Positions 5,067-9,906 of a DNA stretch of 64,000 nt are shown piece by piece. Position 1 is the first letter of the stretch, and each line of letters begins with the position of its first letter. This DNA comes from an uncultured delta proteobacterium (GTDB lineage: Bacteria; Desulfobacterota; Desulfomonilia; Desulfomonilales; Desulfomonilaceae). The notes beneath the pieces are model-generated. The model was given only the letters and a program-made list of their open reading frames with translations, made no database searches and had not been told where the DNA came from. Position numbers and translations under genes: made by a program. The stretch lies in contig CAWBKB010000001.1 in the NCBI GenBank assembly GCA_963789265.1, forward strand, positions 2,240,001-2,304,000, in the 5' to 3' direction.

Positions 5067-6422
5067 ATGAATCAGCAAGAGATGGTCGGCTTCTGGAAAA
5101 CCATCGTCGATACAATGATGAACGGCCTGATAGTGGTTGACGCAGACGGGATGATAGTCGCGGTCAATCATGCCACTGAAGAAATCACCGGCTATGAGCG
5201 GGAGGAACTCATCGGAAGCCCCTGCACGATTCTAAACTGCGACCAATGCCCTGCCCGTGTGCCGGAAGGCGACTTTACATGCGATCTGTTCGAGACGAAA
5301 CAAATCGAGAAGCGCAGATGTACTCTCACGAGAAAAGATGGCACCGTGCTGCCTGTAGTGAAGAATGCCAGAGTCCTCAGCGGGAATGATGGAAAGGTCA
5401 ATGGTGGCGTAGAGACCATCACGGATCTCAGTGAGATAGTTACCAGAGATCTGAAAATAGCCAGATTGAGTTCAATATTGAAGGGCAAAGACAGCTTTCA
5501 CGAGATCATTGGGAAATGTCGAGCAATGCAAGATGTCTTTGATTTGATCACCGATGCGGCTCAATCGGATGCGCCCATTATCATCTACGGTGAAAGCGGC
5601 ACAGGCAAAGAACTCGTCGCGTCCGCGATTCATAAACTGGGCAGACGTAAGGCCGGTCCTTCGGTCAAAGTGAATTGCGCGGCCTTAACCGAATCACTCT
5701 TGGAAAGCGAGCTATTCGGACATGTCAAGGGCGCTTACACTGGAGCTGACAGAAACAGAAAGGGGCGTTTTGAAGTGGCGGACGGAGGGAATATTTTTCT
5801 CGATGAGATCGGAGACATCCCGCTTTCCATGCAGGTGAAAATATTGCGGGTTTTGCAAGAAAAAGAATTCGAGCGAGTTGGAGATAGTAAACCAATAAGA
5901 GTGGATGTCAGAATCATCTCGGCGACTCATCGAGATCTGTCCGAAATGATTGCTCGGAATGAGTTCAGGGAGGATTTGTTCTATCGTCTCAATGTTATCC
6001 CAATCCATTTGCCTCCTTTAAGAAAAAGGCGGGAGGACCTTCCGTTGCTGATCGAACATTTCATCGAGGAAAATCGCTTGAAAACCGGCAAAAACATAAT
6101 CGGGATCAGCAGCCGGGCCATGAACTCGCTGATATCCTACTCCTGGCCGGGCAATATCAGGGAGTTGCTCAATGCTATTGAATATGCTTTTGTGGTCTGT
6201 CGGCAGGCACGCATAGAAGAGCCTCACCTCCCCGAAGCTATCAAGAATGGAAAATCATCGCTTTCCTCGGCTAAAGACGGTGAAGGGGAAAGGAACCGGA
6301 TCGTCGAAGCTATCAGGCAAGCTGGCGGCAAAAAACTTGAGGCGGCCCGACTGCTCGGGATTACCAGGCAAGCTCTCTGGAAAAAAATGGCCAAGTTGGG
6401 GATCAAAAAGGAATTTGCCTGA
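5067..6422 (+). CDS. Sigma54-dependent transcriptional activator (PAS-AAA+-Fis HTH)
   Basis: N-terminal PAS domain with several Cys, GESGTGKE Walker A, ESELFGHVKGAYTGA (GAFTGA variant), WPGNIREL, C-terminal HTH. Confidence 0.95.
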   Translation: MNQQEMVGFWKTIVDTMMNGLIVVDADGMIVAVNHATEEITGYEREELIGSPCTILNCDQCPARVPEGDFTCDLFETKQIEKRRCTLTRKDGTVLPVVKNARVLSGNDGKVNGGVETITDLSEIVTRDLKIARLSSILKGKDSFHEIIGKCRAMQDVFDLITDAAQSDAPIIIYGESGTGKELVASAIHKLGRRKAGPSVKVNCAALTESLLESELFGHVKGAYTGADRNRKGRFEVADGGNIFLDEIGDIPLSMQVKILRVLQEKEFERVGDSKPIRVDVRIISATHRDLSEMIARNEFREDLFYRLNVIPIHLPPLRKRREDLPLLIEHFIEENRLKTGKNIIGISSRAMNSLISYSWPGNIRELLNAIEYAFVVCRQARIEEPHLPEAIKNGKSSLSSAKDGEGERNRIVEAIRQAGGKKLEAARLLGITRQALWKKMAKLGIKKEFA

Positions 6423-6594
6423 TTGTCCACCGCTGAGAACACAGAGATCGCGGAGAATTCTGCTCTCTACAAACCTGTATGGGGATTCTCGAAATTGATC
6501 ACGGAACAAGAAGAAGGCTTGGTGGCGACGCCCCGCGCGGAACGCGGGGTTGCAGTGGGGATGCCTCGCGTGGAACGCGGGACTCCCTGCCATT

Positions 6595-6715: not shown

Positions 6716-7038
6716 GAATAGGTATTATTCCTCCCTTTCGTAAAGCGGGGTCAGGGGAAACTTTTTGGATACCTCCTTGAAAATCCCCCTAAATCCCCCT
6801 TTAGAAAAGGCGATATTATACTTGCCAAACCCTTCTTTGTTTGCCTTGATACTTTCTATCTAAAAACGCGCGCGGTTCCAATAACTTACCTCTTGAAAAC
6901 GAGAAACAGAACCATGTAGTCTTCCCGATTCAGAAACGGAAAAAGCCGAATAAAGGAACTATCTTAGCGGTATCATTCCTTTATTCGGCCCGATGTTGGG
7001 TCAGGGCGACCCCTAAACAACCAATGGAGGATAACATC

Positions 7039-7275
7039 ATGTCCATTCCTGAATCAACACGAAACGAACTGTACTTGAGAGCAGGCGGTTTTTGCGAGTG
7101 TACCATGCTTACCTGTTTTGAACATCCGCGTGGAATGAGATGCCCTAAGCCCCTTGGTTGGGGTTGGCATGCTCACCATAGATCGAGATGGGGCGGTGAT
7201 GACCTTGGCAATCTTCTTGCCATGTGCCCAGAGTGTCACCAGAATACCCTAACTTATGGTCAGCCTCGCTGGTAA
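7039..7275 (+). CDS. Small HNH endonuclease (IS passenger)
   Basis: RBS GGAGG; MSIPESTRNELYLRAGGFCEC...WHAHH...GGDDLGNLLAMCPECHQ; HNH core with Cys zinc ligands. Confidence 0.75.
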   Translation: MSIPESTRNELYLRAGGFCECTMLTCFEHPRGMRCPKPLGWGWHAHHRSRWGGDDLGNLLAMCPECHQNTLTYGQPRW

Positions 7276-7630
7276 AGCGTTTGTGTAGTCGCTTCAATGC
7301 GCGCAGAACGTGCGGGAAAGCTTCATGCCAAACCGTTAACTCTGCTTGAATAAGACCCGATTCACAAACTTGGAGATAAACGGTCGCCCTATCCCCAACT
7401 TCTCTTACTAAGGCTGGCCCAAAAAAGCCAAGAACAAATTCTGCCAATTCTCTCCAGAAATGTCGGCCCTCATAACAGCCATATATGAATAATATTCGCG
7501 CTGGTCGATCTTGACTGCCTTGGCAGCTTGAAATTGTTTGAAGTCGTGCAAAGGCACTTAGAGCCGTCACCAAGTCAGCAACGCCTTCATCCACCGGTGC
7601 GTTGACCTTTATGAATTTCTGTTTATGCAT
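7145..7630 (-). CDS. Hypothetical protein with TYW3-like N-terminal motif (IS passenger)
   Basis: VDEGVADLVTALSAF..LQTISSCQG resembles the D..I..LV..LN...TTSSCSG motif of the TYW3 fold; start overlaps the stop of the upstream small ORF. Confidence 0.5.
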   Translation of the reverse strand: MHKQKFIKVNAPVDEGVADLVTALSAFARLQTISSCQGSQDRPARILFIYGCYEGRHFWRELAEFVLGFFGPALVREVGDRATVYLQVCESGLIQAELTVWHEAFPHVLRALKRLHKRFTSEADHKLGYSGDTLGTWQEDCQGHHRPISIYGEHANPNQGA

Positions 7631-7787
7631 TCTCGGTCGGTTCTTTTGTTTTTTTTGCTGGGAGTATCTTCTTTAGGGCTTCGTCAAGTTTTTCTTCTGC
7701 GTCTTCTCCCAAATGTTCTTCAGCAACCTTTACGAAGCGCGCATATTGCTCCGCGTCGTCTGGCTTCGGTTTTTTCTTTCTTCCCAT
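7623..7787 (-). CDS. 54-aa protein translationally coupled to the IS1595 transposase
   Basis: Below the ORF-track cutoff. TAATG overlap with the transposase stop; MGRKKKPKPDDAEQYARFVKVAEEHLGEDAEEKLDEALKKILPAKKTKEPTENA. Confidence 0.6.
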   Translation of the reverse strand: MGRKKKPKPDDAEQYARFVKVAEEHLGEDAEEKLDEALKKILPAKKTKEPTENA

Positions 7788-8761
7788 TATCGCATAACCC
7801 CGATTTGCCTATCAGTCGTTTGATAGGTGAGACGCTTTCCCACTACGCCCCTTAGCAGTATATCGGCTCTCTCAGTATCGCTAAAGCCTTTACGGGCGGA
7901 TCTCTTCTTGCTGTTGGGCCTGCCACAACGGTTATTATACCGAAAATCGAATTCGGCAAGGTAACGATGGAGATGCTGTTTTTTGCAATGCTGATAGATG
8001 CCCTTCATTCCTCGCTTAAAGATCGAAAAGAAGCCTTCAGCGCAATTGACGTGGACGGTGCGGTCTTCCCTGGACACATATTCCCCGTTACTGTGTTGAA
8101 CCATGCCATGCTCGGCAAAGTTTTCGTCAATGTGGCGATACTGACCGGCATCGTCAGTCATAACTCTTGCTTCTCGGTCTATATTCTCCTGTAGAATCGG
8201 AACGATGGTCTTTGCGTCAACGCTGTCCACGACCATACTTCGTGAACAACCAGACTCACGGTCAATGAGAGAAAGGATTTTGCGCTTGTGCACGTACCCT
8301 TTCTTCACTTCTTTACCGGGCTCATTCCAAAGAAAAGTTTCGTCAGATTCCACGGCCCCGCCATTTGCACCAAAAGGGGTCAGGTCACCGCTTCTCATGG
8401 CTTCTCGGATGCGATGACTCATGAACCAAGCACTTTTGAGAGTAATCCCCAACATCCTGTGGAGTTGATTTGAGGAAATACCCTTCTTTGATGCGGCAAT
8501 GAGGGTCATAGCCTGAAGCCACAATCGAAGCGGAATATGGCTTGATTCAAAGATGGTTCCGATCTTCACAGAAAACTGCTTTCGGCACACATAACACTTG
8601 TAAAGCCCGATTCGGGTGCTATTGCCCTTCATCTTACTTATACGCTCAGTAGCACCACAATGGGGGCACACCGGACCGTTAGGCCATATCCGGGCTTCAA
8701 TATACGCGTATGCAGCCTCTTCGGTTTGGAAGTGTGGCTTAGAGATGGTTGCGTGCCTCAT
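7787..8761 (-). CDS. IS1595-family DDE transposase
   Basis: N-terminal zinc ribbon (CPHC...CYVC), HTH, VESDETF / MTDD / HVNCAEGFFSIFKR, HLHRYLAEFDFRYN. Confidence 0.95.
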   Translation of the reverse strand: MRHATISKPHFQTEEAAYAYIEARIWPNGPVCPHCGATERISKMKGNSTRIGLYKCYVCRKQFSVKIGTIFESSHIPLRLWLQAMTLIAASKKGISSNQLHRMLGITLKSAWFMSHRIREAMRSGDLTPFGANGGAVESDETFLWNEPGKEVKKGYVHKRKILSLIDRESGCSRSMVVDSVDAKTIVPILQENIDREARVMTDDAGQYRHIDENFAEHGMVQHSNGEYVSREDRTVHVNCAEGFFSIFKRGMKGIYQHCKKQHLHRYLAEFDFRYNNRCGRPNSKKRSARKGFSDTERADILLRGVVGKRLTYQTTDRQIGVMR

Positions 8762-8776
8762 AATAACCGTCCTGTC

Positions 8777-9640
8777 TTAGCGCAATTTCGCGTAGTCTTC
8801 GACAAAAAGCTTTACGGCGTTAAGTACCTTGATAGCGTCTTTGTCATCGTAATCAACTCTGACATGAATAGTGTCGTCTCTCCATGCCATTCTTACGCCA
8901 TTCAAGAATCCATGAGTAATTTTGCGTCGGTCTTTCTTGGCTCGTACTTTTGGCGGATCAATTTGTTCGTGTTCAAGTTTTTTATTAATTTCACCCAAGA
9001 TTATGCCCCATGCCTTTTTGTCAAAAATCCTAGGAGTTACTTTTAGTTTGCGAGCAAATTTACGTAGAACTACTTCTAGGATTCGCATCATGTGAAAGAC
9101 GGAAGCCGTATACCTCCCAACTGCAAAGCAATTCCCGGCTTCTTCGGCATCTTTCCTCAATTCGGGAAATTTGCTCAAAACCTCTTCGCCGAGGAACGTA
9201 CCTTCCATTTCATAAAAGCCTGAACCTGTAGGGTAAAGCATCAACATGGTTCTATTATCAATCTCGTGCAAAACGCCCTGAATTAATGAATCTAGCCTTC
9301 CCCGGATTTCATCATAGTGCTGCTTTTCGACGTTTTGATTACATAAATAGTTGATATGTTCCACCAAAACGTCTGCATTACTCGCGGAGTTGGTTAGGCC
9401 CGATGTTGCCGCCCTAAATCCCAACTCTTGTATTTCTAACAGTATTTCGGCCAAATCAACCGAGTAATCCGGGTGCATCAGGGCGTTAATGATCCCAGCG
9501 CAATGCGCCAAATTAGAGCAAATCCTAACGAAATTTCTTGCATAAAATCTCAAGATGTCCCACAAGCTCACAACCTGGAATGGGTGAAACGGGTCTTTCA
9601 AAGAAGACTTGTCTCTTAATAGCCGAAAGGTTAAATTCAT
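8777..9640 (-). CDS. HEPN-like (DUF4145-type) protein (IS passenger)
   Basis: C-terminal EEAGNCFAVGRYTASVFHMMRILE helix followed by the Rx4H motif WRDDTIH; RBS GGGGAG before ATG 9640. Confidence 0.65.
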   Translation of the reverse strand: MNLTFRLLRDKSSLKDPFHPFQVVSLWDILRFYARNFVRICSNLAHCAGIINALMHPDYSVDLAEILLEIQELGFRAATSGLTNSASNADVLVEHINYLCNQNVEKQHYDEIRGRLDSLIQGVLHEIDNRTMLMLYPTGSGFYEMEGTFLGEEVLSKFPELRKDAEEAGNCFAVGRYTASVFHMMRILEVVLRKFARKLKVTPRIFDKKAWGIILGEINKKLEHEQIDPPKVRAKKDRRKITHGFLNGVRMAWRDDTIHVRVDYDDKDAIKVLNAVKLFVEDYAKLR

Positions 9641-9906
9641 CTTACTCCCCCTCTCTGGGTTTGGCAAGTATAATATCGCCTTAGAAAAGGGGGACTTTGA
9701 TCGCCCTCGGCCTGCATGGACCTCTTCTAAAGGAATGAAATTGCCTTAAGGTAACGCCTATGGACCTTATCGCACGCTCCGGTGAGCGACGTGGAATTGA
9801 ACAAGCTATCTTTTATCTCTGCGTTCTCGGCAGACTCTGCGGTGAACCTGATATCCGGCGAAAAGTCATTCGGCACATAGACTTAGTCAACCGCATGCCA
9901 AATTGC

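Follow-up and report, generated by a model that had tools for sequence, protein, structure and literature searches.

An intact insertion sequence (IS) of the IS1595 family, 2,872 bp long, occupies positions 6809 to 9680 of the DNA analyzed here, a stretch of 64,000 nucleotides from an uncultured delta proteobacterium (GenBank assembly GCA_963789265.1, contig CAWBKB010000001.1, positions 2,240,001 to 2,304,000 of the forward strand) that we call the window. Beside its transposase gene, the element carries a gene for a HEPN-like protein, a predicted RNase whose relatives recur in related elements of several phyla. We lean toward reading the element as an IS that bears a swappable HEPN RNase module for conflict (defense or addiction) together with a slot for further cargo; the function given to the module is a predicted one.

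ISs are usually taken to encode just what their movement needs. In the present case, a single family of predicted RNases goes with an entire IS1595 clade over several phyla. Should the HEPN protein be of use to the element or protect the host, few self-mobile carriers of conflict systems would be smaller than these units of 2 to 3 kb. The variable slot, if this is true, would be a place to seek new defense genes, with a 161-amino-acid (aa) protein and a small HNH nuclease as two candidates in the window. A small core protein of the clade (orf54) and a sharp target preference should be useful for annotating such elements in metagenome-assembled genomes (MAGs).

Boundaries and genes of the element

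The element is delimited by two copies of a 24-nt terminal inverted repeat (TIR), GGCGATATTATACTTGCCAAACCC, at 6809 to 6832 (plus strand) and 9657 to 9680 (minus strand). They differ by 0 mismatches and are the only two matches in the whole window at up to 3 mismatches (0 expected, from 100 shuffles). An exact 8-bp target site duplication (TSD; 8/8), TTAGAAAA, stands outside them at 6801 to 6808 on the left and 9681 to 9688 on the right. The boundaries can also be read as a 10-nt direct repeat, TTAGAAAAGG, with 22-nt ends set 2 nt inward; we favor the 24/8 reading because of the end consensus (GGC...) of 58 related arms, which the left TIR fits, and because of the 8-bp duplications of relatives, 23 of which are likewise 8/8. 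The G+C content is 46.2% in the element and 54.1% in the rest of the window, where none of 111 segments of equal size is as low. The neighbors are a sigma-54 activator gene on one side and an acyl-CoA dehydrogenase gene on the other, and the element therefore lies outside any larger mobile island.

The transposase gene (7787 to 8761, minus strand) is full length and encodes a 324-aa DDE enzyme with an N-terminal zinc ribbon. It is matched by Pfam DDE_Tnp_IS1595 (E value, 3.3e-31; 108.8 bits, cut-off 27) and Zn_ribbon_IS1595 (1.1e-13) and by NCBIfam transpos_IS1595 (5.1e-51; 173.6 bits, cut-off 75), and its residues 1 to 323 align at 87% identity with the transposase of a related locus, L004. 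The element thus belongs to the IS1595 family on all features tested, namely, transposase type, inverted ends, and 8-bp duplication. Its end, GGCGATATTAT, resembles the reported end consensus of the ISNwi1 subgroup (ggnnatTAT), whose catalytic motif is reportedly the DDEK variant; assignment to that subgroup is provisional.

Four open reading frames (ORFs) follow one another on the minus strand and overlap or nearly abut: a 287-aa HEPN-like ORF (9640 to 8777), the transposase (8761 to 7787), a 54-aa ORF (orf54; 7787 to 7623), and a 161-aa ORF (7630 to 7145). Convergent with them on the plus strand is an HNH-type ORF of 78 aa (ATG at 7039) or 83 aa (start at 7024), which ends at 7275 and overlaps the final 131 nt of the 161-aa ORF. 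A hairpin at 6945 to 6989 on the minus strand, with a perfect 14-bp stem followed by UUUUUCC (−28.7 kcal/mol; z score, −3.86), is matched in stability by 1 of 200 shuffles and looks like the terminator of a single operon formed by the four minus-strand genes, the HNH gene presumably being read from the other end. A preliminary description of this DNA, made without database searches, had named the perfect 24-bp ends, the exact 8-bp duplication, the AT-richer composition, this gene order, and an intact IS1595 element, and all of these were recovered.

The HEPN-like gene and its linkage to IS1595 transposases

The 287-aa ORF (8777 to 9640, minus strand) has its start codon 40 nt inside the right end and encodes a two-domain protein, with a helical domain at the N terminus and, at the C terminus, a HEPN domain that holds R254-x4-H259. 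A word-indexed protein search found two close relatives besides the protein itself, and a profile of these three reached 6,830 cluster representatives at an E value of ≤0.001 and 392 at ≤1e-30. In an alignment of 70 relatives, no variation is seen at H183, R186, R254, and H259 and hardly any at N255 (RNxxxH motif). The Rx4-6H motif of HEPN domains, R254-DDTI-H259 in the window protein, keeps its R and H in 70/70. Among the IS-borne copies, H183, R186, R254, H259, C171, and Y264 are invariant in 34/34. Pfam families of the HEPN clan match many relatives: at an E value of <0.01, DUF4145 matches 11, Hypoth_Ymh 7, and HEPN 7 of the 70, and with the C-terminal domains of 18 relatives taken alone, Hypoth_Ymh matches 6, HEPN 5 (best, 3.3e-5), and DUF4145 4; the Csx1/Csm6 HEPN model of PADLOC weakly matches 4 of the 70. 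The structure model is all helical (predicted local distance difference test [pLDDT] score, 87). The protein therefore appears HEPN-like by motif and family evidence, not by fold, in keeping with the preliminary description. A tblastn search of phages with this protein gave no match.

Genomes were scanned with the 70-sequence HEPN alignment, and the best 80 of 354 confirmed loci were analyzed. The genome of the window and the close HEPN relatives P0002 and P0003 are not among these loci, the best of which is 36% identical to the HEPN protein of the window. In 45/80 loci, the HEPN gene is followed at a distance of 30 to 3,882 nt by a relative of the window transposase (25 to 90% identical). The two genes are convergent in 43 of these 45 and in tandem, as in the window, in the other 2 (L004 and L005, from a Desulfomonilaceae MAG). 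The tandem layout probably arose once: the window, L004, and L005 form one clade of the transposase tree (support, 88). Loci with this linkage belong to Acidobacteriota, Pseudomonadota, Thermodesulfobacteriota, and Nitrospirota.

Related inverted ends and an exact 8/8 duplication enclose both HEPN gene and transposase gene in 21 loci (among them L006, L034, L062, L007, and L011), and 2 further delimited units hold a HEPN gene without a detectable transposase. The minimal HEPN/transposase units measure ∼2.0 to 2.2 kb, with little else inside. Two copies in one Blastocatellia genome (L059 and L060) share 99.95% identity along exactly 2,039 bp, beyond which their flanks are unrelated. Among the 35 transposase-less loci, an end-like sequence lies upstream of the HEPN gene in 11 (strong in 7), and 8 have less than 2 kb of downstream sequence. 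Because of this linkage, enclosure, co-mobility, and trail of remnants, we regard the HEPN gene as a regular part of a large IS1595 group and not as an accident of the window copy.

The HEPN gene is hypervariable relative to the transposase gene. In 21 element pairs with transposases 70 to 90% identical, the median HEPN identity is 30% (range, 25 to 68%), and the window and L005 share 90% of transposase residues versus 35% of HEPN residues, with tree distances of 0.11 and 3.55 changes per site, respectively. DNA similarity of the window element to L004 and L005 is confined to one end with the first ∼95 nt of the HEPN gene, the transposase gene with orf54, and the other end. Divergence is bimodal, in that near-copies (L004/L005 and L006/L010) differ little in both genes and the others jump. 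Steady fast evolution would account for this pattern less well than recombination that replaces the body of the HEPN gene, and we infer the latter. HEPN and transposase distances are nevertheless correlated across elements (Mantel r, 0.38; 0/2,000 permutations as high).

Several results weigh against the reading that we prefer, on the side of both linkage and identity. The best 80 of 354 loci may over-represent IS-borne copies, and 27 of the 80 have no transposase despite at least 2 kb of downstream sequence. The transposase clade does not require the HEPN gene, which is absent from 3/3 plasmid relatives of the transposase examined (52 to 56% identity). Conversely, HEPN relatives were matched in 6 plasmid records, and in the 4 of these that were examined, the gene does not adjoin an IS1595 element. 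The HEPN tree shows weak clustering of copies by linkage to an IS (23 changes versus 28.4 in shuffles). The window protein itself falls below the HEPN-clan cut-offs (Hypoth_Ymh E value, 0.19; 12.1 bits, cut-off 25), and its C-terminal domain alone reaches an E value of 0.063 with Hypoth_Ymh. Foldseek with the whole two-domain model gave no HEPN structure in the PDB (best E value, 0.12; Csm6 at rank 42, with 1.8) or in BFVD, where nothing fell below 0.4. Sequence-profile searches of the PDB with the full and the C-terminal HEPN alignments gave chance-level matches alone. In the minimal elements, no antitoxin partner is evident. PADLOC 2.0, a check proposed with the preliminary description, assigned no defense family to the HEPN, orf54, or 161-aa ORF of the window and matched the HNH ORF weakly (best E value, 2.9e-4).

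Proposed role, alternatives, and the variable slot

In the reading that we prefer, the element is intact, was inserted recently, and belongs to a clade of the IS1595 family. It is built from four parts: a DDE transposase; the charged orf54 protein of ∼50 aa; a HEPN gene with its start a few tens of bases in from one of the inverted ends; and a variable slot, filled here by the 161-aa and HNH ORFs. These parts move as one unit. We consider it most likely that the HEPN protein works as an RNase, of the sort found in abortive infection or among toxins, both its activity and its trigger being predicted. Its catalytic-type residues are preserved, and the remainder of the protein is exchanged or diverges far faster than the transposase, a pattern to be expected if the gene were engaged in a conflict, be it with phages, with competing elements, or with the host. 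Carriage of the HEPN gene could then aid persistence of the IS through a benefit to the host (defense) or through addiction, and the slot might gather further conflict genes. A role in defense or addiction, as first suggested for this DNA, is plausible for the HEPN gene and for the slot in general.

A stronger version of this reading, which we put forward tentatively and hold to be clearly less probable, regards the HEPN protein as integral to a widespread IS1595 clade and as maintained there by selection. The element would then encode an RNase of its own, with a status like that of TnpB in IS200/IS605, that keeps the element from being lost: cells in which the element disappears or falls silent might be killed or arrested, for example, or competitors and phages might be attacked. 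Elements would swap the body of the HEPN protein like a cassette, by way of the conserved end with the first ∼30 codons on one side and the transposase or orf54 on the other, and orf54 would be a second, hitherto unrecognized core protein of the clade.

It is unlikely, in our estimate, that the HEPN protein, perhaps with orf54, is instead an accessory of transposition, such as an RNase acting on transposase mRNA or the overlapping convergent transcripts to set copy number, with no part in defense or addiction. Such a factor would account for the fixed end position in 45/80 loci (43 of them convergent), for an association that spans transposases down to ∼32% identity, for the Mantel correlation of 0.38, and for minimal elements that hold nothing else of size. 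A cofactor should co-evolve with its enzyme, yet HEPN proteins are ∼30% identical where transposases are 70 to 90% identical, and the transposases of the three plasmid loci (52 to 56% identical) do without a HEPN gene in 3/3 cases.

The 54-aa ORF (7623 to 7787, minus strand) encodes a charged protein and is a conserved companion of the transposase clade. An iterated profile found the orf54 family at 19 loci in addition to the window. It is present in 16/18 loci with a transposase that shares at least 49% identity with that of the window and in 3/3 plasmid IS1595 loci examined that have no HEPN gene; it was not found in HEPN-bearing loci with transposases less than 49% identical or in L006 and L010. 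In convergent elements, it comes last among the genes on the transposase strand, its end reaching the 3′ end of the HEPN gene, and variable genes stand between it and the transposase gene. Pfam and NCBIfam gave no match, and Atlas offers unnamed clusters alone. Because orf54 follows the transposase and not the HEPN gene, a role linked to transposition seems more likely than one as an antitoxin.

A HEPN toxin paired with an orf54 antitoxin, stabilizing the IS or its replicon, is improbable. The pair would be unmatched in the 3/3 HEPN-less plasmid elements and in the HEPN-bearing loci where orf54 was not found, and the two genes are convergent and not co-transcribed in most elements. What recommends the pair is that in the convergent loci L007, L011, L026, L028, and L040, orf54 reaches exactly to where the HEPN gene has its 3′ end, that it is small and charged like many antitoxins, and that toxin-antitoxin pairs, including one HEPN-MNT pair, are reported from Tn3-family transposons (PMC7157771). 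No match to a nucleotidyltransferase family of Pfam or NCBIfam was found in any of the five ORFs of the element.

The 161-aa ORF (7145 to 7630, minus strand) is variable cargo with a conserved alpha/beta core of ∼120 aa. It has 2 relatives in the protein collection, which share its ∼120 N-terminal residues. Conservation is lacking in the last ∼40 residues, which are encoded antisense to the HNH gene (131-nt convergent overlap, 7145 to 7275); this tail may result from run-on translation and have no function in the protein. The core is modeled with confidence (pLDDT, ∼88), and Foldseek against the PDB gave no match below an E value of 0.03 (best, 0.039), with no TYW3 structure among the matches listed. 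The ORF had been called TYW3-like, a name that we drop: the Pfam match spans 26 residues (E value, 0.05; 13.4 bits, cut-off 27), and an Atlas cluster bearing TYW3 was offered at 0.84, below the Atlas reliability level.

The small HNH-type gene (7039 to 7275, plus strand) scores 20.8 bits against Pfam HNH (E value, 4.4e-4) and misses the cut-off of 21.4 by 0.6 bits; its translation has the CxxC...HH...N...CxxCH pattern of the zinc-bound beta-beta-alpha motif, in keeping with the HNH signature first noted for this gene. The protein collection holds one relative (78 aa, 81% identity), and the PADLOC matches are to effector endonucleases. Neither this ORF nor the 161-aa ORF occurs in any of 83 related loci examined. 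At an E value of ≤0.01, tblastn gave no match to the 161-aa core or the HNH protein in plasmids and none to the 161-aa core in phages, the HNH search covering plasmids.

Related elements carry other genes in this slot. Pfam matches were obtained for 8 of 46 cargo ORFs, 38 having none, and include an N6_N4 DNA methylase (L007), DUF3892 (L011), a SocA/Panacea domain (L027), Peptidase_M78 (L028), PIN (L085), a nested DDE transposase (L042), and a zinc ribbon (L075). PADLOC matched 3/44 cargo ORFs, as a type II methylase, a CapP/RmrA-like peptidase, and PDC-S45. The last, a defense candidate (8.4e-16), is found in L005, the closest relative of the same layout, at the slot equivalent to that of the 161-aa and HNH ORFs. 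The preliminary description proposed that unrelated cargo in close relatives would tell against a shared module; such cargo is what the 161-aa/HNH slot has, and the HEPN gene recurs.

The description had treated the HEPN, 54-aa, 161-aa, and HNH genes as acting jointly in one compact defense or addiction module. That idea is not supported, because the four-gene set does not recur, and we give it little credence. HEPN and orf54 occur without the other two (0/83 loci), unrelated genes fill the equivalent slot in the nearest relatives, and the protein collection holds just 2 relatives of the 161-aa ORF and 1 of the HNH ORF. To its credit are the packing of the first four genes as a putative operon with a shared terminator and the presence of two nuclease-type signatures, the HNH ORF weakly matching PADLOC effector endonucleases as stated above. 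Passengers without any role, i.e., common small HEPN genes trapped between IS ends, would explain the varied slot content (38/46 cargo ORFs without a Pfam match) and would resemble the IS1595 elements with assorted passengers that are reportedly listed in ISfinder, but they are a poor explanation for one protein family in the same position and orientation in 45/80 loci of several phyla and for catalytic-type residues invariant in 34/34 copies despite ∼30% overall identity, which argue for selection for function in the IS-borne state.

Known systems, target sites, and flanking repeats

Siguier et al. (in 2009) and ISfinder are said to describe passenger-carrying IS1595 elements ("transporter IS"; the ISNwi1+ and ISPna2+ groups). 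The window element is like these in its ISXO2/IS1595-type DDE transposase with zinc ribbon, short ends starting with GG, 8-bp duplication, and extra genes inside. Unlike the passengers reportedly known, those described here include one identifiable HEPN-like family, at a fixed terminal position, throughout a large clade, with fast divergence and with orf54. The element is a further member of the passenger-carrying ISs, and the family-level pattern of a fixed but hypervariable HEPN gene, orf54, and a slot looks new, comparison with ISfinder aside. The association of HEPN with IS1595 was not found described in the full-text literature searched, a search that left subscription papers and ISfinder outside, and passengers of this kind may already be present, without names, in ISfinder entries.

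TnpB and IscB are accessory nucleases of the IS200/IS605 and IS607 families. They resemble the HEPN gene as a second nuclease-type gene that is a regular part of an IS, beside its transposase; unlike them, the HEPN protein shows no relation to them in sequence or fold and is predicted to cut RNA and not DNA, and there is no evidence of a guide RNA (0 Rfam matches at the gathering threshold over the whole window).

Tn3-family transposons are described as carrying embedded toxin-antitoxin pairs beside their transposition genes, repeatedly acquired and proposed to stabilize the transposon (PMC7157771). As in those described pairs, a predicted conflict-type RNase gene here adjoins the transposition genes and does not stand among ordinary cargo (PMC7157771). 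The window-type unit differs in its IS1595 transposase, in having no resolvase/res site and no MNT or other recognizable antitoxin, in its far smaller size (∼2 to 3 kb), and in a HEPN protein with an extra N-terminal domain.

A survey of HEPN proteins places Ymh and DUF4145 among the defense-linked families, and the word "transposase" has 0 occurrences in its main text (PMC3710099). Like proteins described in that survey, the window protein combines a variable N-terminal region with a C-terminal HEPN domain, has the Rx4-6H motif and no antitoxin, lies on mobile DNA, and belongs to a fast-evolving family (PMC3710099). Unlike the surveyed families, it matches no abortive-infection (Abi) model of PADLOC, and its own Ymh and DUF4145 matches are below cut-off.

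The insertion site of the window element is a hairpin, of which the left half (C-run and loop) lies at 6795 to 6808, its last 8 nt being the left TSD copy, TTAGAAAA. The right copy (9681 to 9688) is followed by the G-run of the hairpin, which extends to 9693. The window element and its 7 closest delimited relatives (8/8) are all inserted in such an A/T-rich hairpin loop, C4-6[TTTnnAAA]G4-6, and the duplicated sequence is the loop in these 8 elements. The relatives are L005, L006, L007, L009, L010, L011, and L026; the first six are from MAGs of Thermodesulfobacteriota or "delta proteobacterium," and L026 is from a Nitrospiraceae MAG. More distant relatives mostly duplicate CTnnnnAG-like sites. 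We know of no description of so sharp a target preference for IS1595.

A repeat resembling repetitive extragenic palindromes (REP-like), CCCCCTTTTCTAAAGGGGGATTTAGGGGGATTTT, occupies the insertion flank at 6734 to 6808 and occurs nowhere else in the window. The same repeat stands beside related elements in other genomes, at 5887 to 5962 in L004, 3279 to 3309 in L009 (100% identity over 31 nt), and ∼7762 to 7791 in L007. Farther left, the intergenic region at 6522 to 6581 holds two tandem, GC-rich palindromic units of 27 nt, GTGGCGACGCCCCGCGCGGAACGCGGG, which are 85% alike, and a similar unit, CGCGCAGAACGCGGG, is found in the left flank of L007.

Read inward, the ends of the element contain TTGCCA (TTGACA in most relatives) and, read outward, TATAAT 6 nt from the tip, which could be promoter elements or transposase binding sites. 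A scan for promoter and terminator consensus sequences found no more sites than in shuffles. A TTGCCA-17-TAAGAT promoter match in the right end was set aside, as it overlaps the HEPN start codon. A DNA search of plasmids with the whole element returned just ∼110 to 130 nt of similarity in the transposase gene (5 records).

Two plasmid HEPN relatives that have no link to an IS, in Komagataeibacter (L003, 4397 to 6274) and Rhizobium (L002, 4502 to 5507), have a small ORF upstream; in one of these loci, an HNH endonuclease gene follows, and the other has HipA and VapC toxin gene neighbors. Among the related elements, the transposase of L005 (6924 to 7891) is matched in two frames (query residues 1 to 33 and 33 to 323), which suggests a frameshift near codon 33. 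Antisense ORFs of 317 to 432 aa span the whole transposase gene in L036, L040, L077, L032, and L050 and are probably a composition effect in G+C-rich genomes. L036 and L040 are inserted directly beside another IS1595-type end (left flanks), and L042 contains a nested IS with a DDE_Tnp_1 transposase at 7373 to 8809.

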